Positions 2,863-50,596 of a stretch of 64,000 nucleotides of DNA are shown here, in pieces (position 1 is the stretch's first letter; each line of letters begins with the position of its first letter). A program made the position numbers and the translations under genes. Source of the stretch: a virus. Below the pieces are notes generated by a model, which saw only the letters and a program-made list of their open reading frames with translations, was not told the DNA's origin and did not search any database. The stretch spans positions 1 through 64,000 of IMG/VR virus record IMGVR_UViG_3300032053_000013; one strand, given 5' to 3'.

Positions 2863-3222
2863 ATGGGGTCGTCGTGCGATTTCTGCCCCGCCAAGTGCGC
2901 GGACTGCGCCAGCGGGGACCTGGCCGGGGGCACCTCCTGCCATGAGGCCAAGGAGCGGTACGCCAAGGGGCAGGAAGAACTCCAGAAGAACCCCCTGGTG
3001 GGCCTCATGCGGAAGGCGGACCACCGGAAGCGCGAGATGGTCCGCCTCATCACGGGCGGGATGACGCGGGTGGCGGGGAGGCGCTACCGGATCAAGGAGG
3101 AGGACTTCCTGGCGATGAGCCTGGACGCCCTCCACGAGGTCTGGCGGTTCATCCGGGACGCGGAGCAGGAGGAGATGATGAAGGTCAACAAGGCGAGGCG
3201 CGAGCCGTGGAGGATGGGATGA
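2863..3222 (+). CDS. Hypothetical protein with Cys-rich N-terminus
   Basis: CDFCPAKCADC...C; ATGA-coupled to next gene. Confidence 0.65.
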   Translation: MGSSCDFCPAKCADCASGDLAGGTSCHEAKERYAKGQEELQKNPLVGLMRKADHRKREMVRLITGGMTRVAGRRYRIKEEDFLAMSLDALHEVWRFIRDAEQEEMMKVNKARREPWRMG

Positions 3223-3947
3223 CCTGGTTCAAGATCGAGTGGCCCAAGATGGTTGAGGTCGTCCCCGAGGGCGAGCGCGGGGAGGCCAAGGTCGCGCACT
3301 TCGAGGTCGACGAGAAGGCCAGCCGGTTCACGTCGATACGGGCGGCCGTCAACATGCGCTCGGGCGAGTACGTCCCGCCGGGGAGGTACGCCCGGCTCGT
3401 CGTCGGGGGGGACCTGATGATGAGCGACACCCAGATGGAGCAGGACACGAACTCCTGCGCCGTCCACGCGGCCAACGGGGACGTCCTGATCGCGGGCATG
3501 GGCCTGGGGGTCATGCTGATCCCGACGTGCCGGAAGCCCGAGGTCACGAAGGTGCTGGTGGTCGAGAAGTCCAAGGACGTGATCGACCTGGTCGGGCCCC
3601 ACGTCCGCAGGTTCCTGGGGAAGGACGCGGAGAAGCTGACCATCGTCCAGGGGGACATCTTCGACTTCAAGCCCCCGAAGGGCCAGATGTGGGACACGAT
3701 CTGGTGGGACGTCTGGCCGACGGTCTGCGAGGACAACCTCGACGGCCTCTCCACCCTCAAGCGGAGGTTCTGCAAGCGGCTGAACAAGGGGAACCCGAGG
3801 TGCTGGATGGGCGCCTGGGAGGAGGACAGCTTGCGGGACATGCGGCGCCGGAGTAGGCGCGAGGAGCGGGAGTGGGCGTTCTGGAGGAACCCGCTGATGG
3901 AACTCGCCGGGAGGATCCCGAAGGAAGTCGACGGGGTGAGCCTGTGA
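3219..3947 (+). CDS. Class I SAM-dependent methyltransferase, spermidine-synthase-like fold
   Basis: DVLIAGMGLG (motif I), VLVVEKSKDVI (II), IVQGDIF (III), WDTIWWDVW (IV). Confidence 0.8.
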   Translation: MTWFKIEWPKMVEVVPEGERGEAKVAHFEVDEKASRFTSIRAAVNMRSGEYVPPGRYARLVVGGDLMMSDTQMEQDTNSCAVHAANGDVLIAGMGLGVMLIPTCRKPEVTKVLVVEKSKDVIDLVGPHVRRFLGKDAEKLTIVQGDIFDFKPPKGQMWDTIWWDVWPTVCEDNLDGLSTLKRRFCKRLNKGNPRCWMGAWEEDSLRDMRRRSRREEREWAFWRNPLMELAGRIPKEVDGVSL

Positions 3948-4141
3948 GGGGGGGAGGGAAGAAGGGATTCTGCTGGAACAGCCGCCGGTGGGTCGTCCTA
4001 ATGGACCTGAGGATGTCCTACCCGGAGGCCTGCCCGTCGAGGGGGATGGGGTGCGCGGGGTGCTCGTACTTCGAGGAGCGGGAGCAGACGGCGTACGTCC
4101 GGAGGGTCTTGCGGATCCTGTCCAGGTGGCCCGATGGCTAA
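3944..4141 (+). CDS. Small Cys-rich hypothetical protein
   Basis: GTGA overlap; CPSRGMGCAGC. Confidence 0.5.
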   Translation: MRGGGKKGFCWNSRRWVVLMDLRMSYPEACPSRGMGCAGCSYFEEREQTAYVRRVLRILSRWPDG

Positions 4142-4367
4142 GCAGTGCTCGTGGTGCCAGGCGCTCGACGGCCAGTCCTACTGGAAGGTCGTCGACGGGG
4201 TCCTGGGCGGGAAGGACGGCAGGGCGCGGGGAGTCTGCCGCCTGCGGGATTTCCATGCGCTTCTTGAGGGCGGCGAGGAGAAGGATGTTTCCTTCTGCTC
4301 GAAGGCTGAGGCCGACCTCTGGGCGAAGGAGCAGGGTAGGAGGTTCGTCGGGTGGCGGGTCCGCTGA
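4134..4367 (+). CDS. Small hypothetical protein
   Basis: CSWC motif, fits tiling. Confidence 0.55.
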   Translation: MAKQCSWCQALDGQSYWKVVDGVLGGKDGRARGVCRLRDFHALLEGGEEKDVSFCSKAEADLWAKEQGRRFVGWRVR

Positions 4368-4831
4368 TCCTCCCAAGGGCGTTCTTCGACGTCCTCAGGG
4401 CGGGCAGGCTCGGGAAGAAGGACGTCGGGATCAGGGTCAAGCTCGGAGGGGGGCGCGTCGTCCTCTGGATCGAGGTCGGCGGGGCGAGCCACGGGTTCGA
4501 GATCTCGCGGAGGGGGCGTGGCGGGAGGGTGCGGGTCCTGTCCCTCGACGGGAACGCGGAGGAGGAGACGCGGGGGTGGGCGGCGGCGGCGGAGGTCGTC
4601 CGAGGAGATGCGGAGGCGGCCTGGGTCGGGGACGTCATGGCCGGGGAGGGCGGGGGGGGCCTGACGGGGGGTCGGGCCCTGCCGAAGGCCCGCCGGACGG
4701 CCGACATGGCCTCCTTTCCTGCTCGCCACGGGTTATACGCCAGCCGGGGGCCCGGAGTGACGCGGAAACCTTACGTTCCCGGAAAGATTTCCCCGGAATT
4801 GCCGTTGACTAAAGGGGGAAAACCTATATAA
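4352..4831 (+). CDS. Hypothetical protein; 3' part doubtful because it runs through promoter P2
   Basis: Only + strand ORF filling the gap. Confidence 0.35.
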   Translation: MAGPLILPRAFFDVLRAGRLGKKDVGIRVKLGGGRVVLWIEVGGASHGFEISRRGRGGRVRVLSLDGNAEEETRGWAAAAEVVRGDAEAAWVGDVMAGEGGGGLTGGRALPKARRTADMASFPARHGLYASRGPGVTRKPYVPGKISPELPLTKGGKPI

Positions 4832-4852
4832 TATAGGTGTGATGAGTGAGGA
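4785..4852 (+). promoter_or_regulatory. Early-type promoter P2: TTGACT-N16-TATAAT with a palindrome over the -10
   Basis: TTGACT 4805-4810, TATAAT 4827-4832, inverted repeat ACCTATA-TAA-TATAGGT 4822-4838; shares TTGACTAA-N5-GAAAAC-N-TATATAATATA-N-GTGT...GAGTGAG with P1. Confidence 0.85.
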
Positions 4853-4859
4853 GGGGACC

Positions 4860-5378
4860 ATGAGCTGGGACACCGAGGCCACCAAGAAGGCGAAGAAGGC
4901 GGCGGTCCAGGGAGCCCTGGAGCGGTCCGACGAGTTCGTGGTCCACGCCCTCAAGGCCGTCTACGCCCGGCAGACCGCCGACGAGCGCGGGGCAGGGGTC
5001 ACCGTCCACTCCAACGGGCGGGGCTTCACGGGCTTCGACGCCATCATCCTCTCCTCCTTCGCGAAGCAGGTCTCGAAGTGGGAGGCGGACTCCGAGAGGC
5101 GGTTCTCCTCCCCCCTGTCCCCCAAGCAGATGGCGGCCGCCCGCAAGATGATGCCCAAGTACTGGGCGCAGCTCATCGAGGTGGCGGACGAGAAGGCCAA
5201 GGCGGCCCCCGCCCTGGTCGAGGCCGCGAAGTCCGGGACCTCGCTCCCGCTGATGGATCAGTGGGGGCACCCCATCAAGGACGAGATGGGCAACGTCGTC
5301 CGCATCGAGGGCGAGGACGAGCCGGTGTACTGCCTCGACGGGGACATGTGCTGCGAGACCCCGGCGTCCAGGGCGTAA
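4860..5378 (+). CDS. Conserved large-phage hypothetical protein
   Basis: AL.AVYARQTADE...T...NGRGFTGFDA.ILSSFAKQ...LSPKQ...KYWAQL pattern familiar from large phages; first gene after P2. Confidence 0.75.
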   Translation: MSWDTEATKKAKKAAVQGALERSDEFVVHALKAVYARQTADERGAGVTVHSNGRGFTGFDAIILSSFAKQVSKWEADSERRFSSPLSPKQMAAARKMMPKYWAQLIEVADEKAKAAPALVEAAKSGTSLPLMDQWGHPIKDEMGNVVRIEGEDEPVYCLDGDMCCETPASRA

Positions 5379-5389
5379 CGGAGGGGAAG

Positions 5390-5857
5390 ATGGACCCGAG
5401 GCACGACAAGAGGAAGATCCGCGAGGCCGCGAGGGAGTGGCGCGAGGACCGGAGGGCCGCGGCCGGGCGGGAGAGGAACGCCACATTCCTGGCCGAGGTC
5501 GAGGGGTCCCTCTGCGCGGCGTCGATAGCCGGGAACCCGGAGCCCGACCTGTGCCTGCTCTCGCTGGCCAGGGACTACCTCGCCAAGGGGCTCCAGGCCT
5601 CCCCGAGGATGCGGGAGATCGTCGGGCTCGTGCTCGACCTGAAGGGGGCGGAGCCGGGGGAGGAGCGCGAGGCCCTGCTGGAGATGCTTGAGGGGGCGGT
5701 CGGGCTCCTGCCGAGGACGGGGAGGTCGTTCGCCTACTCCCTCCTGGAGAGGCGGGACGGCTTCCTGTCGTTCTCGAACAGCGACAGGGAGTGGGGCGCG
5801 GTGGAGGACCTGCTCAACCAGGCCCTCGGAAGGGGAGCGTACGCTTTCCGGTGCTGA
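5390..5857 (+). CDS. Hypothetical protein
   Basis: GGAGGGG RBS, ATG 5390. Confidence 0.6.
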   Translation: MDPRHDKRKIREAAREWREDRRAAAGRERNATFLAEVEGSLCAASIAGNPEPDLCLLSLARDYLAKGLQASPRMREIVGLVLDLKGAEPGEEREALLEMLEGAVGLLPRTGRSFAYSLLERRDGFLSFSNSDREWGAVEDLLNQALGRGAYAFRC

Positions 5858-5873
5858 GCCGGAGGAGGACGGG

Positions 5874-5954
5874 ATGGCGACGATGACGGCGGCCGAGAAG
5901 ACGACCCTGTACTGCACCGCCTATTGCATCTTAATCTATGATGCAATATACTGA
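5874..5954 (+). pseudogene. Displaced original 5' end of the WGR-ligase gene (MATMTAAEKTTLYCT...)
   Basis: Strong GGAGGAGG RBS; KTTLYCT resembles KSVTLFCV at the start of the ligase beyond the HNH gene; frame stops inside the HNH promoter. Confidence 0.6.
5922..5952 (+). promoter_or_regulatory. Promoter of HNH cassette, TTGCAT-N17-TATACT, overlapped by a 9-bp inverted repeat
   Basis: TTGCAT 5924-5929, TATACT 5947-5952; TATTGCATC 5922-5930 / GATGCAATA 5940-5948. Confidence 0.8.
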
Positions 5955-5974
5955 CATCCAGAAGGAGGTGTCAG

Positions 5975-6502
5975 ATGCAAGGTGTCAAAGGGACCGGTCA
6001 GTCCGGAAGATCGAGGCGTGATCGCGAGCGTAGGGACAGACGTAGACAAGCGGGGTTGTGCCCAACATGTGGGAAGCGCCCGTTTGTTGTGGGCAAGACT
6101 TTGTGTGACCCTTGTAGGTTGGCCAGGAATGCGTCGGTCCACCGTTATCGTCTGACGACTCGCGGAAAGGAACGTACTGATTTCTGGGTCAAGAGGTGGA
6201 TCAAGAAGAATCCAGAGATGCGTCGGGAGCAGTCCCTACGCTGCTATCAAAAGTTGCGCGAAGAAGTGTTCGGGGTCTACGGGAAGGTGTGCGGGTGTTG
6301 TGGGGAAAGTGATATTAAATTTTTGACGATTGATCACATAGCCGGTGGTGGTCGTCGTCATACGGGAGCGATCAAGACGACGCTGTATGCTTGGCTGAGA
6401 CGGGAGGGTTTCCCGAAGGGGTTTCAGACGTTGTGCTGGAACTGCAATGCAGCGAAGCACATCTACGGGCGGTGTCCGCATCAGGAGGTCTGTGGTGGGT
6501 GA
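5975..6502 (+). CDS. Free-standing HNH homing endonuclease
   Basis: CPTC...CDPC Zn finger; YGKVCGCCGE...LTIDHI...QTLCWNCNAAK HNH core; visibly more A/T-rich than neighbours; AGGAGG RBS. Confidence 0.9.
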   Translation: MQGVKGTGQSGRSRRDRERRDRRRQAGLCPTCGKRPFVVGKTLCDPCRLARNASVHRYRLTTRGKERTDFWVKRWIKKNPEMRREQSLRCYQKLREEVFGVYGKVCGCCGESDIKFLTIDHIAGGGRRHTGAIKTTLYAWLRREGFPKGFQTLCWNCNAAKHIYGRCPHQEVCGG

Positions 6503-7613
6503 GCGAGTGAAGTCGGTCACACTTTTTTGCGTCGAGGGCGGAAGCAACAAGCAGTACACGGTCTGGATGGAGCGGTCCGGGAACGGATGGCTCGTGAACT
6601 TCCAGTTCGGGCCCGTCGGCGGGTGGGTCCAGGGAGGGGCCAAGACGAAGTCCCCCGTGTCCCGCGCCCAGGCGGAGAAGGTCTACGAGGGTCTCCTCAA
6701 GCAGAAGCGGGCGAAGGGCTACTCCGAGGGCGAGGACGCCCCGGCGTTCTCGCAGCCCGCCGCCAGGGCCGCGGCCCCCGCCCAAAAGGCCGCCGCGAAG
6801 GCGGAGGATGACCCCGGTCTGCGCCCCATGCTCCTGACGTGGGCGGAGGAGAGCGACCTGGGGTGGCTCGTCGGGGACGACGGGTGGGGGGCCCAGGAGA
6901 AGATCAACGGAAAGCGAATCATGATCAAGGTCACCCGCGGGGGAGTGGTGGGGCTGAACAAGCGGGGCCTGCCCTGCCCGATCCCGGAGGCAGTGGCCCG
7001 CGAGATGTCCGGGTTCGTCGGGGAGTTCGACGGGGAGATGGTCGGGGACGTCTACAACGTCTTCGACATGACGATGGACGGTGTCGCCAACGTGGGGACG
7101 AGCGGGTGCGAGTACCGCCACGGGCTGCTCGCCTCGCGGCTGGCGAAGCCGACGAAGCACGTCCGGGTCGTCCCGCTCGTGGTCGGCGCGGACGCGAAGG
7201 GGGTGCTGGTCGAGGGCCTGCGGGCGGGCCGGAAGGAGGGGGTGGTGTTCAAGCGGCTGGACGCGCCCTACGAGGCAGGGCGGCGCCCGAGCCTGGCGAA
7301 GGCCATCGCCGTGAAGGTGAAGTTCTACGCCGAGATCGCGGTCGAGGTCCTGAAGTGGAACGGGGACAAGTCCTCCGTGGAGGTCGCGGCCCTGGACTCC
7401 GGGCGGCTCGTGTCCGTGGGGAAGGTCACGATCCACGACAAGTATGTCGGCCAGGTGGCGCCGGGGGTGGTGGTCCGGGTGAAGTACCTGTACGCGACGG
7501 AGGCCGCGCAACTGTACCAGGCGAACCTGGACCCGACGGACGACGGCTCGGTGGTCGCCGACCAGGTGGCTGCGGACCCGATCGGGAGGCTGAAGTTCGA
7601 GAACAAGGATTGA
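6495..7613 (+). CDS. ATP-dependent DNA ligase-like protein with N-terminal WGR-like domain
   Basis: TLFC.EGGSNKQY...VNFQFGPVG (WGR-like); PMLL, QEKINGKR (motif I), FDGE (III), VFD (IIIa), EGVVFK (IV), VKVK (V); C-terminal OB fold. Start uncertain (6495 or 6507). Confidence 0.85.
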   Translation: MGERVKSVTLFCVEGGSNKQYTVWMERSGNGWLVNFQFGPVGGWVQGGAKTKSPVSRAQAEKVYEGLLKQKRAKGYSEGEDAPAFSQPAARAAAPAQKAAAKAEDDPGLRPMLLTWAEESDLGWLVGDDGWGAQEKINGKRIMIKVTRGGVVGLNKRGLPCPIPEAVAREMSGFVGEFDGEMVGDVYNVFDMTMDGVANVGTSGCEYRHGLLASRLAKPTKHVRVVPLVVGADAKGVLVEGLRAGRKEGVVFKRLDAPYEAGRRPSLAKAIAVKVKFYAEIAVEVLKWNGDKSSVEVAALDSGRLVSVGKVTIHDKYVGQVAPGVVVRVKYLYATEAAQLYQANLDPTDDGSVVADQVAADPIGRLKFENKD

Positions 7614-7648
7614 CGGGGGTTCCGGCGGAGGGCCGGGGGGAGGGTAGG

Positions 7649-7864
7649 ATGGGGGCGTGGAAGCGGTGCGGGGTGTGCGGGGGCAGGGTGCGGGTCCTCG
7701 CCGTCATGAGACTGGGCGAGGTGGACCTGGACCACGAGGCGTGGTCGTGCCTGAACCCGAGGTGCCAGCGGGTCGAGGTGGTCGGCCGCGGGGCGCGGGG
7801 CCGTGTTGGGGGGGATTTCCATGGCGGGACTGGGGAAGTTCAGGATCGAGGAGAGGTCGCTTGA
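7649..7864 (+). CDS. Small Zn-finger protein
   Basis: CGVC...CLNPRC; RBS GGAGGG. Confidence 0.5.
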   Translation: MGAWKRCGVCGGRVRVLAVMRLGEVDLDHEAWSCLNPRCQRVEVVGRGARGRVGGDFHGGTGEVQDRGEVA

Positions 7865-8381
7865 CTCCCTCTCCCCGGCGGACTGGAACCCGAGGGAGAT
7901 AGACGACGCGTCCCTCGACGGGCTGGAGAGGTGCATCCTCAGGTACGGGCTCGTCCAGCCGATCGTGTGGAACGAGAGGTCCGGGAGGGTCGTCGGGGGC
8001 CACCAGCGGCTGAAGGTGCTGAGGAGGAACGGGGAGGACAGGACACAGGTCGTGGTCGTGGACCTGTCCGACGACGAGGAGAAGGCCCTGTCCGTCTCGC
8101 TGAACAACGAGATGATCCAGGGCCGGTGGACGGACGGGCTCCAGTCGCTGATCGCGAGCATCCGGGACGGGTCCGCGGTGGAGGGGCTGATGACGGACGA
8201 GCTCGTCGAGTCCCTCGCGGGGTCGGGGGCCGGGGAGGTCGGGCCCCTCGACGCGTCGAGGCCGCCGAGGATGGTGTGGACCGTCGTCGGGGTGCCGGAG
8301 GGCAGGGAGGGGGAGGCGGCGCCGTACGTCGAGGCGATAGCGAGGATCGAGGGGGCCTTCGTGGAGACGGCGAGGCGATGA
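7821..8381 (+). CDS. ParB/Srx N-terminal (ParBc) domain protein
   Basis: LSPADWNPREI...GLVQPIVWN...VVGGHQRLKVL...EEKALSVSLNN. Confidence 0.85.
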   Translation: MAGLGKFRIEERSLDSLSPADWNPREIDDASLDGLERCILRYGLVQPIVWNERSGRVVGGHQRLKVLRRNGEDRTQVVVVDLSDDEEKALSVSLNNEMIQGRWTDGLQSLIASIRDGSAVEGLMTDELVESLAGSGAGEVGPLDASRPPRMVWTVVGVPEGREGEAAPYVEAIARIEGAFVETARR

Positions 8382-9007
8382 CCGCGTGGGACGCCCAGGT
8401 CGAGGTCCGGCGGAGCCTCTTCGGCCGCCACCACGGGTTCGGGCACGTCGTCGTCGTGGACCTGGCCGGGAACTGGCCCGTGTGGGAGAGGCTGTGCGGG
8501 CCGAGGATGAGGTACGTCGGGTACACGGGAGACGACCCGTCCGGGGCCGCGGGGGCGATCCTGGCGGCCGAGAGGGACGTGGACGTCGTGGACGTCGGGG
8601 GGCGCGACCCGTGGGGCCTGTACGCCGACGTCCTCTCCGGGTTCCGGGGGAGGGCGGTGACGGTCTTCATGTCCGTCCCGTCGTCGGCCCTGCGGCTCGA
8701 CGGGGGGATGCCGAGGTACGTCTGGGAGAGGGCGGGGGTCCCGTTCGACTGGGGGAGGTGGAACGGCCCGGCCTTCGACGCGCTCGTCCTGCGCGCCGGG
8801 CTGTCCTACGCCTGGGACCGGGGGTTCTCCGTGGAGGAGGCGGTGGCGGTTAGGTTCTTGGGCAAACCGTTCCCCTGGCGTTACAATCATGTGGGATTGC
8901 GGCTTCGTTCAGAGTGGGGTGAGAATGACGGACAAGGAGACGGCGGTCCTGGAGTTCAAGGCCAGGGAGCAGACGCGGGCGGAGAACCTCCACCCGCTCG
9001 TCCGTGA
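8378..9007 (+). CDS. Hypothetical protein, possibly a degenerate methyltransferase fold
   Basis: ATGA-coupled to ParB gene; VVVVDLAGNWPVW and VDVVDVGGRDPW loosely recall MTase motifs I and IV. Confidence 0.5.
   Translation: MTAWDAQVEVRRSLFGRHHGFGHVVVVDLAGNWPVWERLCGPRMRYVGYTGDDPSGAAGAILAAERDVDVVDVGGRDPWGLYADVLSGFRGRAVTVFMSVPSSALRLDGGMPRYVWERAGVPFDWGRWNGPAFDALVLRAGLSYAWDRGFSVEEAVAVRFLGKPFPWRYNHVGLRLRSEWGENDGQGDGGPGVQGQGADAGGEPPPARP
8858..8887 (+). promoter_or_regulatory. Putative promoter embedded in CDS upstream of the terminase operon
   Basis: TTGGGC-N18-TACAAT in an AT-rich patch. Confidence 0.45.
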
Positions 9008-9341
9008 CCCGGTGCTCCGAAATCTCGTGACGGCGTGGTCCATGTTCCCCGTGGCCTTCGGGGACCCGGCCGGGGCGATGCCGGGGGACGAGAAGGCCCG
9101 GTGGAAGTGGCTCTGGTCGAACGTCCGCTTCGACTCCGAGGACCTCGCCGACATCCTGCGGATCGACTCCCTCAAGGTCGGCAAGCTCGTCAACAGGGCG
9201 GCGGCCTTCCGGCTGATCTACCCCGACGGGACGTCCAGCGCCCTCGCCCTCCAGTTCGTCAGGAACGAGATCCAGAAGGCCGTCTCGAAGAGGGCCGGGC
9301 GGCCGAGGAACGAGGAGGCCGAGGACAGGAAGGAGAAGTGA
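8925..9341 (+). CDS. Hypothetical protein
   Basis: ORF directly before terS, typical codon usage. Confidence 0.7.
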   Translation: MTDKETAVLEFKAREQTRAENLHPLVRDPVLRNLVTAWSMFPVAFGDPAGAMPGDEKARWKWLWSNVRFDSEDLADILRIDSLKVGKLVNRAAAFRLIYPDGTSSALALQFVRNEIQKAVSKRAGRPRNEEAEDRKEK

Positions 9342-9342
9342 G

Positions 9343-9846
9343 ATGTACGCGACGAAGCCGTCGACGCAGGAGACCTACGAGCGGAGGATCAAGGTCTTCC
9401 GCATGAAGATGCGGGGCCTGAACCACACCGCGATCGCGAGGGAGCTGAACGTCACCCGCAACGCGATCGTCCGGGACTCGAAGTGGATCAAGGAGCACTT
9501 CACCCAGCTCGCGGCCCAGGCCGACCGCAACACCGAGATGGGGGAGGCGATGGCCCACCTGGAGGAGATCGAGAAGGAGGCCATGTTCAACTACTCCGAG
9601 ACGGAGAACCCGAAGGCGAAGAACGACTTCCTCCTCACCGCCATCACGGCCTGCGAGAAGAGGGTCAAGCTGATGATGGACGCTGGGATCATCTCGAAGG
9701 CGCCGGTGGACCTGAACCTGACGGTCGACCTGTCGAGGATGTCGACGGAGGAGCTCATCCAGCGCAGGCGGGATGTCGTGAACCGCCTCACGCAGGTCGG
9801 CGCGGCGTCCGCCATGGGGGTGACGGGTGAGCCGAACCAAAACTAA
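9343..9846 (+). CDS. terS: Terminase small subunit (HTH)
   Basis: N-terminal HTH RGLNHTAIARELNVTRNAIVRD, coiled body, directly upstream of terL. Confidence 0.75.
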   Translation: MYATKPSTQETYERRIKVFRMKMRGLNHTAIARELNVTRNAIVRDSKWIKEHFTQLAAQADRNTEMGEAMAHLEEIEKEAMFNYSETENPKAKNDFLLTAITACEKRVKLMMDAGIISKAPVDLNLTVDLSRMSTEELIQRRRDVVNRLTQVGAASAMGVTGEPNQN

Positions 9847-12800
9847 GGCGCCGCAGCTGGACATGGCGGCGATGCGGAACGACCTCACCTACCTCGCCCG
9901 CATCGACGCGGAGCTCGACGGGAGGGCCAAGTCCCAGGACCCGAGGTCGTACGGGCTCCCGGACCTCCTGCGCCCCGCGGCCGAGGGGGAGACGGAGGCC
10001 CAGCTCGCCGAGAGGCAGGACCGGGAGATCCGGGACCTGATCGAGAAGAAGCTATGGGTCCTGAAGGACGCGAGGCGGCTCGCGATCAAGCTCTCGCCCC
10101 CGATGGTGGAGTTCATCTCCACGATGTTCTACCGGAGGGCGAACCAGGCGATCCTGTGGAAGGGGCGCGGGTCGGGCGGGACGCTGTGCGCGGCCATCCT
10201 CGTTTGGCTCTGCCTCGTCTACCACCGGATGTCGTTCACCAGCATGGCCGGATCCACTGAACAAGCTAAGCTGATCTACCAGTACACGAAGTCCTTCTGG
10301 GAGTGCTTCCCGGTCCTGTCGGCGTCCCTCCTCGAGGTGGAGCCGCTCATGACCGAGACGCGGCTGAAGAACGGGGTGCTGCTGAAGATCATCTCCGCGT
10401 CGGAGAAGCAGACCCGAGGCAAGCACAACCCTGGGTTCATCGTCGACGAGTCCTGCCAGTCCAGCCAGAACGTCGACTACCTCATCCAGACCGCCATGCA
10501 GGGCGCGATGTCCGAGCCCAACTCGATGGTGGTCGTCCTCTCCACCTTCCACTACCCGATCGGCCTGTTCCAGGAGATCTGGGACTACGCGGAGGAGCGC
10601 GGGTTCAGGCGGTTCAACTGGAACTGCTACGACTCCATGGCGCCATGCTCCGAGGGGATCGTGACGGCGACGCCGGGGGACCCGGAGGCCCTGGAGTTCT
10701 GCCGGACGCAGTGCCCGCTCACCGAGAAGAGGCCGAGCCTCGACCCCGAGGGGAACCAGGTCGGGTGGAGGTACGCCGGGTGCGACGGGAAGGGGAGGCA
10801 CACGCGGGGGTTCCAGAAGAGGGAGAACCTGATCCTCGCGAAGAAGATGAATCGGGGGACGGACGTCTTCGAGAACGAGTACGAGAACAACCGGCCCAAG
10901 TGGATGCGCCCGATCTACGACCCGACCCTCGTCGACGGGATCCTCGTCCCGGAGTCGTGGCCGGTCGTCGCCCCGGTCGACGCGGAGGACCCGGAGGCCG
11001 TGGCGGAGAGCCTGTCCGGGGACAGGAGGTACGAGATCGCGGAGAAGTCCGTGGGGATCGACTGGGGGCTGGAGGGGCAGACGGCCCTCGTCCTGTCGGT
11101 CCTCGTGCGGTTCACGAGGCCGCCGTCGGACCCGAAGAAGGGGCTGCCGGACGGGCCGCCGGTCGACTGGTGCATCGGGGTCCTGGAGTCCGAGTTCCTG
11201 TCGGGCAAGCTCACGTCCGAGGCCATCAAGGTCCTCATGATGTGGCAGGAGATGTACGGGGACAAGGACTTCTTCGTCTACGGCGACGCGAGCCACCCGT
11301 TCAACAACCTGGAGGTGGACCAGGCCGGGTTCAACCTCATGAACGTGCAGTTCGCCAAGTGGAAGGACTACGGGGTGGGGAACTGCGTGAAGTACCTCGT
11401 GACCCCCGGCAAGCTGTTCATCCGGGAGAACCTCCACACGCTCCTGGACCAGATCAAGCGGTACCGCCGGGACAAGTACGGGAAGCCGATCAAGAAGGAC
11501 GACCACGGGCCTGACGCCTTCATGTCCTATCTCGATGCCAAGACGAGAGTTATGACACGCTCGGGGTGGGCACCGGTGGGAAGGCTGGGTGTCGGGGTTG
11601 AAGTTCTGACGCATGCCGGAAGATTTCGTCCGATCGTCAAGTACGAGCCCGCTCTCTACACGAAAGGGAGATGCGTGGAGGTGAACTTCGCCGGGCGAAC
11701 GCATCCTGTTGATGCGCATCGTGTCACCCTTGAGCATCCTTTCCAGATTGAGGATGGTTCATGGGTCGAGGCCGAGAACCTGAAGCCGGGGATGAGGGTC
11801 CAGTGCCTGGCCTCTCGATGCGTCAGGTGCGGGATGAAGATCCTCTGGTCGCGCAAGTTTTGTGACGGGTGCGTCGGGAAGGGGCGAAACGCGAGATGGA
11901 AAAACCCTGGGGAGCGCGAGCGGGTAGAGGCCGAGGGGAAGGCGGAGGTTCTCCGGTCAGAATACGTGACGGGGGTGCGAGACGCTACCACGAACGCAAG
12001 GGCGGCGACAGCGGCTCGTGCCGACATGATCAGGTCGAATCCTGGGGAGAGGGAGAAGGTAAGAGAGCATCTGAGGACAATTCTTCCGTTGGTGAACACG
12101 CCCGAGAAGAGGGGGCGGCAGTCACGTCTGATGAAGATGCTCCACGCACGGGAAGGATTCTTCGATCATCTTCGCACCCCGGAAGGGAGGGAGAGGGCTC
12201 GTCGGCAGGTTATCGCACGGATGATTGCCGATCGTCAGGTCCCCTTCAACTGCCGTTTGAGGCACTTCACCGACATCGAGCGGGAGATGTTCGACTCGTT
12301 CGTGGGGGCGGGATTCGAGCCGGTTCATAATCTTCGGGTTGGACGATGGTTCCTTGATATCGCTCTCCCGGAGTTGATGGTCGCGGTGGAGTGCGACGGG
12401 GGGAACTGGCACAACTCGAAGGAGGCGCGGGAGAGGGACGCCAAGAAGGACGCCTACTTGAGGGGACACGGATGGGAGGTGTTCCGGTTTTCAGGGAAAC
12501 GGATCAAGGACGGCGTAGATGGGTGCCGGGACGAGGTTCTGCGGGTTGTGGCCAACCACGAGGGTCTCTACGAGTTCACCTCGATCGAGGTCGTCTCGGT
12601 GAAGATCGTCGAGATGAAGCGGCCACGGACGGCGTACCACTTCGAGGTGGAGGAGGACAGGAGCTACGTCGCCAGGGGAATCGTGTCCCACAACTGCTCG
12701 ATGCTCCACTACCGGTTCGAGGAGCGGTTTCACGGGGAGGATGCGGGTATCGCGTCGCCGGAGGCTGGCAGGCCGAGGGCGGCCAGGCAGCCCGCCGCCC

Positions 12801-13000
12801 CGCCGGAGGCGCCGCCGCCGTCCGTGGCGTTCGGCGTGTCGCCCCCGGTGAGGTCGCCCGAGTTCGGGGGCGACGCCTTCATGCAGCCGGTCGTCGGGGG
12901 CGGCCTGGTGATGCCGCTGTCGGTCAACCAGGAGCGGTCGCCTATTGACAATGCGGGGAGGTCGAGGAAGACTGGTGGTAAGGGCGTCATCGTCTTCTGA
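9827..13000 (+). CDS. terL: Terminase large subunit with intein in the nuclease domain
   Basis: Walker A variant KGRGSGGT, Walker B FIVDE, coupling motif VLSTF, nuclease GIDWG and KKDDHGPDA. Confidence 0.9.
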   Translation: MSRTKTKAPQLDMAAMRNDLTYLARIDAELDGRAKSQDPRSYGLPDLLRPAAEGETEAQLAERQDREIRDLIEKKLWVLKDARRLAIKLSPPMVEFISTMFYRRANQAILWKGRGSGGTLCAAILVWLCLVYHRMSFTSMAGSTEQAKLIYQYTKSFWECFPVLSASLLEVEPLMTETRLKNGVLLKIISASEKQTRGKHNPGFIVDESCQSSQNVDYLIQTAMQGAMSEPNSMVVVLSTFHYPIGLFQEIWDYAEERGFRRFNWNCYDSMAPCSEGIVTATPGDPEALEFCRTQCPLTEKRPSLDPEGNQVGWRYAGCDGKGRHTRGFQKRENLILAKKMNRGTDVFENEYENNRPKWMRPIYDPTLVDGILVPESWPVVAPVDAEDPEAVAESLSGDRRYEIAEKSVGIDWGLEGQTALVLSVLVRFTRPPSDPKKGLPDGPPVDWCIGVLESEFLSGKLTSEAIKVLMMWQEMYGDKDFFVYGDASHPFNNLEVDQAGFNLMNVQFAKWKDYGVGNCVKYLVTPGKLFIRENLHTLLDQIKRYRRDKYGKPIKKDDHGPDAFMSYLDAKTRVMTRSGWAPVGRLGVGVEVLTHAGRFRPIVKYEPALYTKGRCVEVNFAGRTHPVDAHRVTLEHPFQIEDGSWVEAENLKPGMRVQCLASRCVRCGMKILWSRKFCDGCVGKGRNARWKNPGERERVEAEGKAEVLRSEYVTGVRDATTNARAATAARADMIRSNPGEREKVREHLRTILPLVNTPEKRGRQSRLMKMLHAREGFFDHLRTPEGRERARRQVIARMIADRQVPFNCRLRHFTDIEREMFDSFVGAGFEPVHNLRVGRWFLDIALPELMVAVECDGGNWHNSKEARERDAKKDAYLRGHGWEVFRFSGKRIKDGVDGCRDEVLRVVANHEGLYEFTSIEVVSVKIVEMKRPRTAYHFEVEEDRSYVARGIVSHNCSMLHYRFEERFHGEDAGIASPEAGRPRAARQPAAPPEAPPPSVAFGVSPPVRSPEFGGDAFMQPVVGGGLVMPLSVNQERSPIDNAGRSRKTGGKGVIVF
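11525..12694 (+). mobile_element. Intein of about 390 aa with DUF559/Vsr-like (PD-(D/E)XK) endonuclease
   Basis: Block A (S)YLDAKTRVMTRSG, block B VTLEHPF, block F/G YHFEVEEDRSYVARGIVSHN followed by Cys+1; internal RWFLDIA...VAVECDGGNWH...RDAKKDAYL...GWEVFRF. Confidence 0.9.
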
Positions 13001-49228: not shown

Positions 49229-49384
49229 GTGGTCCTGAGGTTCGTCGTCGCCGTCGCCCTCGTCGAGGCCGTGGTGGAGATCACGTCCACGGCGGAAGTG
49301 TTCGAGGGCGTCCGGGCATGGCTGGCGGGCAGGGGAGAAAAGCCCCGGAAACTGGGGATTTTCGCCCGGTGTGGCTACTGCCAA
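49229..49384 (+). pseudogene. Displaced original 5' half of the DUF1360-like gene
   Basis: LVEAVVEITSTAEVFEGVRAWLAGRGEKPRKLGIFARCGYC vs LVEAVVEICAEGEIFEPLRAWLAGRGDKPRKIGVFVRCPYC at 50186; the frame runs on to 49861 as junk over the endonuclease gene. Confidence 0.8.
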
Positions 49385-49392
49385 AAAAGTCC

Positions 49393-49421
49393 TTGCGGTT
49401 ATTGCCAAACAGTAGTATTAT
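49393..49421 (+). promoter_or_regulatory. Promoter of LAGLIDADG cassette, TTGCGG-N17-TATTAT
   Basis: Canonical spacing; ends 6 nt before ATG 49428, so possibly leaderless. Confidence 0.7.
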
Positions 49422-49427
49422 GGGGAC

Positions 49428-50216
49428 ATGAAGAAGATCAGCGAAAGCACTGCGGCCAGGATCGCGGACCTCTACAGGGAGGGGCACTCCTCCTACAAGA
49501 TAGCCGAGATGCTGGGGGTGGGGCACAGTGCCGCGAGCAAGTACGCGAGGTGGCTCAGGATCTCCAGGACGAGAAGCGCGGCAAGCGTCCTCGCCCGGTT
49601 GAGGGACACGGAGATCAACGTCGAGTTCTTCAAGGAGTGGAGTCCCAACCTCGCATATCTTCTCGGAATCATCTGGACAGACGGATGCCTCGGGAAGACT
49701 ACTCGGGGGGAACAGGTGATCCTCTCGATGAAGGAGTCGGAACTCCTTGGGAAGATCGGGGAAGCCACGGGGGCCAAGGTCTCGCAGCACAGGAATCGAA
49801 AGGAGTGGATCTGGACGATTCGATTCAGCCTTTTGACGGTCGTTTCCTGGTTCAAGGATAGGGGACTCACGGGCAGGAAATCCTTCACGGTCGAATGGCC
49901 GAAGGGGTTGCCGGAGGGCCTGGAGATTTCTTTCGTTCGGGGGCTCATAGATGGGGACGGGTCGTTCGGGATCGACAAGAGGAACGGGTCTCTGATGTTC
50001 GGGTTCGTCTCGGCCTCGGAGGTCTTCGCAAGGCAGATGAGGGAGTGGCTCGGGGCGCGGGTTGCCGGAGGGAGCTTCTTCTGCGAAAAGGGTAGGTACT
50101 GGAGAATACGGTACGGCGGTCGGGGGGCAGAGAAGATCCAAGAGATGCTGTCTCCGAAGGATGGGGAGTGGGGGCTCGATAGGAAATGGAAGATGTCCTC
50201 TGGAAGTTGCCGATAG
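49428..50216 (+). CDS. Free-standing LAGLIDADG homing endonuclease with N-terminal HTH
   Basis: YKIAEMLGVGHSAASKY HTH; AYLLGIIWTDGC and FVRGLIDGDGS motifs; more A/T-rich than flanks. Confidence 0.9.
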   Translation: MKKISESTAARIADLYREGHSSYKIAEMLGVGHSAASKYARWLRISRTRSAASVLARLRDTEINVEFFKEWSPNLAYLLGIIWTDGCLGKTTRGEQVILSMKESELLGKIGEATGAKVSQHRNRKEWIWTIRFSLLTVVSWFKDRGLTGRKSFTVEWPKGLPEGLEISFVRGLIDGDGSFGIDKRNGSLMFGFVSASEVFARQMREWLGARVAGGSFFCEKGRYWRIRYGGRGAEKIQEMLSPKDGEWGLDRKWKMSSGSCR

Positions 50217-50596
50217 CGATTGTGCTCGTAGAGGCGGTCGTTGAGATCTGCGCCGAGGGGGAGATTTTCGAGCCCCTCAGAGCATGGCTCGCCGGGAGGG
50301 GAGATAAGCCCCGCAAGATCGGTGTGTTCGTGCGTTGCCCCTACTGCATGTCGGTTTGGATGGCAGTCGGAGCGGCCTACCTGCTCCAGGTCATGGGGGT
50401 CTTCGGGTGGATGGGGTGGTTCGAGCCGGTCCTGTGGGGATTTTTGATCCACCGGGCGTCGAATCTGTGGCACGAGGTCGTGTCGAGGCATCTGGGGCGG
50501 GTGCCTTTCACCCTCTTCATGCGGACCTGGAGGCACGAGGAGGTCGAGGCGAAGCCGGAGGAGAGGAAGGGGGATGGTGGAGCCGCTACAGGGTAA
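50186..50596 (+). CDS. DUF1360-like membrane protein (intact copy)
   Basis: FE.LR.W....G.FVRCPYCMSVW plus hydrophobic helices. Confidence 0.75.
   Translation: MEDVLWKLPIAIVLVEAVVEICAEGEIFEPLRAWLAGRGDKPRKIGVFVRCPYCMSVWMAVGAAYLLQVMGVFGWMGWFEPVLWGFLIHRASNLWHEVVSRHLGRVPFTLFMRTWRHEEVEAKPEERKGDGGAATG

Follow-up and report, generated by a model that had tools for sequence, protein, structure and literature searches.

The question raised by this locus is how the gene for an HNH endonuclease can lie within the first codons of a DNA ligase gene and leave the ligase whole. The window, i.e. the entire stretch of DNA analysed, comprises the first 64 kb of the 122-kb IMG/VR virus record IMGVR_UViG_3300032053_000013 and has a GC content of ~67%; no DNA-level match to the region was found among GenBank phage records. 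Contigs L010 and L011 come from the same phage as the window, with one base differing over the aligned positions 5840–6560, and are not independent of it. An original prediction, made from the sequence alone, held that an HNH gene had entered the 5′ end of the ligase gene and supplied a replacement N-terminus. The arrangement that it described was confirmed, and its interpretation was supported in part. The locus probably carries a free-standing HNH homing cassette within the first 15 ligase codons, with a spare start downstream that keeps the ligase whole. The cassette would be harmless because a complete second gene start, made up of a ribosome-binding site (RBS), a GTG codon and 13 respelled codons, directly follows it.

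Two forms of the ligase start are distinguished here. Type A is the form found in the stranded piece, or stub, upstream of the HNH gene, and type B, or downstream-type, is the working start after the HNH gene. The stub (5861–5918, plus strand) consists of the RBS GGAGGAGGA at 5861–5869, an ATG at 5874 and 15 codons, MATMTAAEKTTLYCT, at 5874–5918, and ends one base before the expected start of the conserved GAGGGCGG. The working start (6483–6533, plus strand) consists of AGGAGG at 6483–6488, GTG at 6495 and the 13 codons VGERVKSVTLFCV, with the GAGGGCGG boundary at 6534. The RBS, ATG and 15 codons, the HNH gene and the ligase restart overlapping the HNH stop codon were all located as predicted.

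The assignment of the stub to the ligase gene had been based on the likeness of KTTLYCT to KSVTLFCV, which is a weak protein resemblance. The stub is nonetheless recognisable beyond chance at the DNA level. Positions 5863–5919 of the window and 3990–4043 of L002, an HNH-free contig that encodes the ligase homologue P0004, share 86% identity over the RBS, the ATG and the first 14 codons (pairwise E 1e-12). The alignment breaks at 5919 and picks up again at 6533, so that comparison with a type A allele shows a clean 615-nt insertion in the window between ...TACTGCACC and GAGGGCGG...; the type A junction, as in L002 or L142, reads ...TTGTACTGCACCGAGGGCGG..., and that of the window itself reads ...CTTTTTTGCGTCGAGGGCGG.... 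The continuous reading M..EKTTLYCT-EGGS.KQY predicted for HNH-free homologues was found in P0004 (MATMTAEKTTLYCTEGGSNKQY), P0010, P0009 and P0003, all of which have type A starts that run on into the conserved motif; an uninterrupted start of this kind is MATMTAEKTTLYCT-EGGSNKQY. The three coding differences between the stub and L002 are all synonymous, which hints, small as their number is, that the stub served as a functional gene start until not long ago. Judged by these alignments, 5874–5918 is a real ligase 5′ end. The open reading frame (ORF) that begins with the stub extends for 26 codons into the cassette (5874–5954, plus strand), adding 11 unrelated codons (AYCILIYDAIY) past 5918 and a stop codon at 5952–5954. 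It is not present in L007, an HNH-free IMG/VR contig syntenic with the window, and is not an independent gene, as had been expected; its product is probably a by-product peptide.

Members of the same HNH family also precede the ligase gene in other lineages. The closest homologue of the HNH protein, P0122 (59% identity), directly precedes a 48%-identical ligase in L008/L009, and a third copy (52%) precedes a 49%-identical ligase in L104/L113. At all three loci the CPH end of the HNH core is followed at once by the RBS and start of the ligase gene. An empty-site relative of L104 is available in L142, in which homology extends to the stop codon of the upstream gene and is regained at GA(A/G)GGCGG. 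Between these points L142 has a native RBS and 12 codons, MSEVGRISLYCT, whereas L104 has a 16-bp hairpin, the HNH gene, a new RBS and 15 respelled codons, MSSRNEIQRISLYNR, with each codon of S-L-Y-C-T altered. The boundary of homology between L104 and L142 is the same as that at which the stub ends in the window, and from this shared boundary we infer that the cut site lies there (LYCT|EGG). Empty alleles as far apart as L002, L095 and L142 have the sequence TACTGCACC-GAGGGCGG in common, and each of the three occupied alleles departs from it. The AT shift of the gene start is also strongest in the occupied alleles (Mann-Whitney p 0.006; 3 vs 32 alleles). HNH is present in one member and absent from the other at the same site in three pairs of syntenic relatives, i.e. 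the window and L007, L104 and L142, and L066 and L145, the last pair with a different target gene.

Duplicated gene starts were sought more widely in a survey of 57 loci, in which the first 60 residues encoded by the gene downstream of HNH were compared with the 400 nt upstream of HNH. Duplicates of 13–17 codons with their own RBS and an aligned start codon were found in L033, L051, L066 and L073. The L033 duplicate (E 7e-9) is respelled. That of L051 (E 2e-8) is a direct repeat of ~30 bp. In L066 (E 1e-5) the stub is GC-rich and the working copy AT-rich, and in L073 (E 7e-4) the HNH ORF itself opens with a stub of a terminase gene. At E <= 1e-6, 2 of the 57 real pairs and none of 171 mismatched controls gave a match, and at E <= 1e-4 a single control did. 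With this mismatched-pair control the top three cases, in which the start codons are aligned, are solid, L073 less so. In L145 (82%), which is the nearest HNH-free relative of L066, the start reads MRMGTKSLLWGCH-QFLL and is stub-like, and the L066 working copy (..LLFGAH..) resembles more distant lineages. By sequence comparison, then, it is the stranded copy that is native to L066. In L051 (2260–2850), HNH lies between near-identical direct repeats of ~30 bp of the target gene start, GAYCCCCGAGACTGGCCGCAGCACGTGGTGG, that are not respelled; the insertion in L051 may be recent, or of a kind that recombination between the repeats can remove precisely.

A further case in the window involves another nuclease family. 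At 49229–50596, an HTH-LAGLIDADG gene (49428–50216; Pfam E 5.5e-8) is flanked by ~51 stranded codons of a DUF1360-like gene and by a complete, diverged copy of that gene at 50186–50596. The last 15 nt of the DUF1360-like stub recur just past it as an AT-richer near-repeat (TGTGGCTACTGCCAA / TGCGGTTATTGCCAA), which could be an older, nested remnant. The layout of old start, endonuclease gene and new start overlapping the endonuclease stop codon hence recurs in L033, L051, L066, L073 and the LAGLIDADG case. The original prediction was right that two nuclease families share this layout; its further claim, that they had converged on it, is not needed, as one repair route giving one structure is simpler.

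The HNH gene of the window (5975–6502, plus strand) has an RBS, GAAGGAGG, at 5962–5969, a TGA at 6500–6502 and a product of 175 aa. The protein matches phrog_2255, ‘HNH endonuclease’ (E 2.4e-10), and at least 168 loci in IMG/VR belong to this phrog_2255-like family; no NCBIfam profile matched the protein. From N- to C-terminus it has a Zn-ribbon, a helical region and an HNH core with a ...CPH end. In an alignment of 17 family members, D120 and H121 (DH), N156 within NCN, and the Cys pairs (C106/C108/C109 and C154/C157) are invariant, and N158 and H169 are almost invariant. The AlphaFold2 model has a pLDDT of 90, and its top Foldseek matches are mostly HNH nucleases (Gme HNH, Cas9 HNH, Cas5-HNH, Cap5 and T5 SciA), with weak E values of 0.05–3. 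A KTTLY stretch within the HNH protein was considered as a match to the stub and rejected as coincidental, the motif being kept across the HNH family.

Some phage HNH proteins are packaging cofactors. The HNH protein and the ligase might be a working pair, for example nicking and resealing DNA in replication, repair or packaging, in which case HNH would not be selfish and the stub would be debris. Their adjacency with overlapping stop and start codons, kept in three diverged lineages, would fit such a pair, as would the sequence match to 5h0m (‘HNH endonuclease’), the single HNH-named Protein Data Bank chain found (E 0.2). A partnership of this kind is, however, highly improbable. Most of the ligase homologues surveyed are HNH-free, with 3 distinct occupied loci among ~50, and close relatives differ solely by the low-GC HNH block. 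Moreover, no ligase of this kind was found near 80 other IMG/VR loci of the HNH family, which adjoin other genes.

The left end of the cassette bears a perfect 9-bp inverted repeat, TATTGCATC at 5922–5930 and GATGCAATA at 5940–5948. The repeat (5922–5948) overlaps a weak promoter-like TTGCAT-N17-TATACT (5925–5953), and a second hairpin at 5951–5974 abuts the HNH AUG. Folding z-scores are -4.1 for 5900–5985 and -2.6 for 5919–5985. The 16-bp hairpin of L104 also lies just upstream of the HNH start (z -5.0), and none was found by folding upstream of the HNH start in L008. By analogy with T4 endonucleases (PMC2988022), such hairpins may gate the expression of HNH. The sole consensus-grade promoter-like site in 5300–7800 is on the minus strand at 5945–5974 (CTGACA-N18-TATATT, 10/12) and is directed away from HNH. 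The operator of I-TevI copies its homing site (PMC2988022). Mimicry of this type, with TATTGCATC copying the target TACTGCACC, was rejected, since the similarity was not above that of shuffled sequences (1925/2000 in the window and 532/2000 in L104); in the LAGLIDADG case it was marginal (49/2000 shuffles).

At the right end, the HNH and ligase genes share 8 nt, and the final 6 HNH codons traverse the RBS and start of the ligase gene. GTG codons occur in the ligase frame at 6492, 6495 and 6507, of which the public gene call uses 6495. Over about 5900–6550 the GC content dips to 0.48–0.60, compared with 0.67–0.76 in the surroundings, and the 45 nt ahead of EGG in the working start have a GC content of 0.53 vs 0.70 in the gene body.

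The same boundaries bear on whether the stub could be a genuine first exon that an intron, an intein or ribosomal bypass connects to the ligase body across 5919–6533. The two pieces share a reading frame, the 615 nt from 5919 to 6534 being divisible by three, and phage group I introns often bear HNH genes (PMC3984707). However, Rfam gave no intron match either at its gathering threshold or at E 10, the HNH ORF takes up all but 86 nt of the insert, and there is no U ahead of the would-be 5′ splice site. An intein is excluded by the in-frame stop codons after the stub and by the different frame of HNH. The downstream copy, furthermore, has its own RBS, start codon and a full N-terminus like those of P0002 and P0007. 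With no intron match and with stop codons between the stub and the ligase, splicing is not involved, and a joined first exon can be given almost no credence.

Several findings weigh against a homing cassette that carries its own replacement start. L007 shares synteny with window positions 3220–10251 at 67–85% DNA identity and lacks window 5858–6482, i.e. the stub and HNH. In L007, the stop codon of the upstream gene is followed immediately by CAGGAGGT and the ligase start VVKVDERVNPVSLFCTEG, which aligns with the downstream copy of the window, RBS included. P0002 (83%) and P0007 (73%) likewise begin as the downstream copy does. The original prediction would have had HNH-free homologues begin with the type A form, and for these three, the closest HNH-free relatives, it did not hold. 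The starts of L007, P0002 and P0007 suggest that the downstream-type start is a natural allele of this lineage, and the working start could be native here, the foreign block then being the stub with HNH. In 60-nt windows the ligase gene of the window is nearer to L007 than to type A alleles nearly throughout, and a switch point that would mark a co-conversion tract was sought and rejected, L007 being the closest throughout. In a tree of ligase bodies, type A comes out as ancestral and the window ligase is grouped with P0002; the tree did not resolve the other branchings, among them a single origin of the downstream-type start. Neither L008 nor L104 has a stub, and the stranded start predicted for this arrangement is hence missing from two of the three ligase-associated HNH loci. 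The Pfam HNH model PF01844 gave E 0.2 and 12.3 bits, under its cut-off of 21.4. The promoter-like TTGCAT-N17-TATACT scores 8/12 and was not called on the plus strand in the consensus scan, so that the AT-rich promoter originally proposed found no such backing. Finally, some of the survey controls gave matches at E 1e-4 to 1e-3.

Alternatively, an ordinary intergenic HNH gene would precede a native downstream-type ligase gene, as in L008 and L104, and the 57-nt type A piece would be a recombination scar or a hitch-hiking flank from an earlier host; neither a replacement start nor a strategy would then be involved. When compared with L007, the insert is exactly the stub plus HNH, L007 has the same RBS and start without HNH, the ligase body is L007-like throughout, and the stub is lacking at two of three ligase-linked loci. 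Co-conversion of flanks by free-standing endonucleases is also well documented in T4 (PMC2790892, PMC2988022). Left unexplained, however, are the end of the stub exactly at the L104/L142 boundary, the duplicated starts of 13–17 codons in four other family members, and the match of the L066 stub to its closest HNH-free relative. One insertion into a type A gene is still required, and its viability needs a spare start. An intergenic origin of this sort is thus considered unlikely, though it is to be taken more seriously than a joined exon or a working pair. L007 itself may either never have been invaded or have lost the element.

Under the preferred reading, a homing cassette with a spare start, the locus would have arisen by ordinary homing through double-strand-break repair, which is the simplest account. 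In a mixed infection, HNH would cleave a type A allele that lacks HNH, at or close to ...TACTGCACC|GAGGGCGG..., between the codons for LYCT and EGG. The break would be repaired from the HNH-bearing genome, and the repair would bring in HNH together with the variant ligase start of the donor. The RBS and 15 codons of the recipient would remain upstream, up to the break, as a dead stub. The variant spelling of LYCT would protect the occupied allele from being cut again and would also lower recombination between the two copies of the start. In later rounds of homing the stub could act as the left homology arm, a role comparable to that of the upstream exon for endonucleases encoded in introns. 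Translation of the ligase would begin at GTG 6495 after AGGAGG, and the stub would yield at most a 26-aa peptide.

A broader proposal would make the HNH family specialised for splice-free homing into the first 13–17 codons of phage genes. The mobile unit would then consist of a regulatory hairpin or promoter, HNH, and a respelled RBS, start codon and codons, with the stub as the left arm and the respelling as immunity, and the odd HNH-free N-termini (L007/P0002 and P0038) would be footprints of past invasions. This proposal is a tentative one, more doubtful than not. If true, such elements would be an overlooked force behind the N-terminal diversity of phage proteins.

The ligase gene that hosts the cassette (6495–7613, plus strand) is complete and encodes a 372-aa WGR and ATP-dependent DNA ligase protein, P0001. 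The WGR domain scored 27 bits in Pfam against a cut-off of 22, and phrog_114 was matched at E 6e-13; the ligase model PF01068 reached just E 0.0024, and the NCBIfam ligase models were weak. Homologues numbered 140 at E <= 0.001, of which 120 were listed. K136, the motif I lysine, and N138 and G139 are invariant in 26 homologues. Motif I has the form K-x-N-G (EKINGKR) in the entire ligase family, in place of the usual K-x-D-G of ATP-dependent ligases. Four homologues (P0072, P0085, P0092 and P0101), of 436–452 aa, have a Cys-rich, zinc-ribbon-like N-terminal extension ahead of WGR.

The left flank of the locus is formed by a gene for a 155-aa protein with no family match (5390–5857, plus strand), whose TGA at 5855–5857 marks the left boundary of the insert in comparison with L007; its homologue in L007 is 46% identical. 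A closer homologue of this gene followed by a type A ligase gene was not found, and the search turned up L143, which is ligase-free. In L143 (115–859), a homologue of the upstream gene is followed directly by a homologue of the Zn-ribbon gene that comes after the ligase gene in the window. As the ligase is missing from L143, it is an accessory gene in this phage group.

Elsewhere in the window (9827–13000), a terminase-like ORF of 1057 aa contains an inserted block with DUF559 and MTES_1575 (Vsr-like endonuclease) domains. Relatives of this ORF have Intein_splicing, LAGLIDADG and DUF559 matches in the same gene, and the block is probably an intein-borne endonuclease.

Alleles that are empty, occupied or stub-bearing make up a natural series at the ligase locus, which illustrates how an endonuclease gene can live inside a coding gene with neither intron nor intein by bearing a spare start. 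It would follow that a short ORF with a strong RBS ahead of an endonuclease gene in a phage may be a stranded start, to be annotated as one. The end of a stub would mark the likely cut site, which would ease the nomination of new HNH enzymes with long recognition sites, and mosaic N-termini in close phage homologues may record past homing. The original prediction spoke of a general, little-described class of such cassettes. The layout does recur, while ‘little-described’ is overstated, the principle having been published for gene 3′ ends (PMC3630166, PMC7282813). The literature searched gave no description of a duplicated, respelled phage gene start with the old start stranded upstream, nor of the 5′ form of the element with its own translation signals in this HNH family; this is no proof that a description is absent.

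Among known systems, the free-standing homing endonucleases of T4-type phages, Seg and Mob, are likewise encoded by intron-less phage genes and co-convert flanking markers, as break repair drags neighbouring DNA along (PMC2790892, PMC2988022). Their own genomes are protected by differences in the target, and they are often regulated by upstream hairpins or operators. They differ in position, as most occupy an intergenic site or divide a gene into two functional halves; mobE splits nrdA in phage Aeh1, in a case cited within PMC2988022.

A closer parallel is offered by the mORFs of fungal mitochondria, which make ‘gene hybrids’ in Allomyces macrogynus atp6 and in Glomus atp6, atp9, cox2 and nad3 by bringing a foreign C-terminus and stranding the native one (PMC3630166). 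In both systems an endonuclease ORF lies within a protein gene that has neither intron nor intein, the displaced gene end is made good by a diverged further copy, which is foreign in the mORFs and may be so in the window, and the displaced end persists as a remnant. In the mORF cases the native remnant clusters with near relatives, and the inserted copy with more distant ones, which is the pattern seen here in L066 and L145. The mORFs replace the 3′ end, leave the remnant downstream, and are often fused in frame to the host gene. In the window, by contrast, the 5′ end is replaced, the stub keeps its own translation signals, the nuclease is HNH and not LAGLIDADG or GIY-YIG, and the host is a phage. 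Since it is the 5′ end that is replaced, the cassette must also supply an RBS and a start codon.

The WHO elements of Torulaspora and Lachancea, which are relatives of HO, home into FBA1 and replace its 3′ end at each integration (Coughlan et al. 2020, PMC7282813). Splicing is reported not to be needed and cleavage to be allele-specific. They share with the present cassette the homing into a conserved gene, the replacement of one gene end and the lack of splicing, and differ in targeting the 3′ end of a nuclear gene, in the use of an intein-derived LAGLIDADG-zinc finger nuclease, and in the relic clusters left by repeated homing. The principle is therefore known for gene 3′ ends, and the window cassette is the 5′ mirror image of the mORF and WHO elements.

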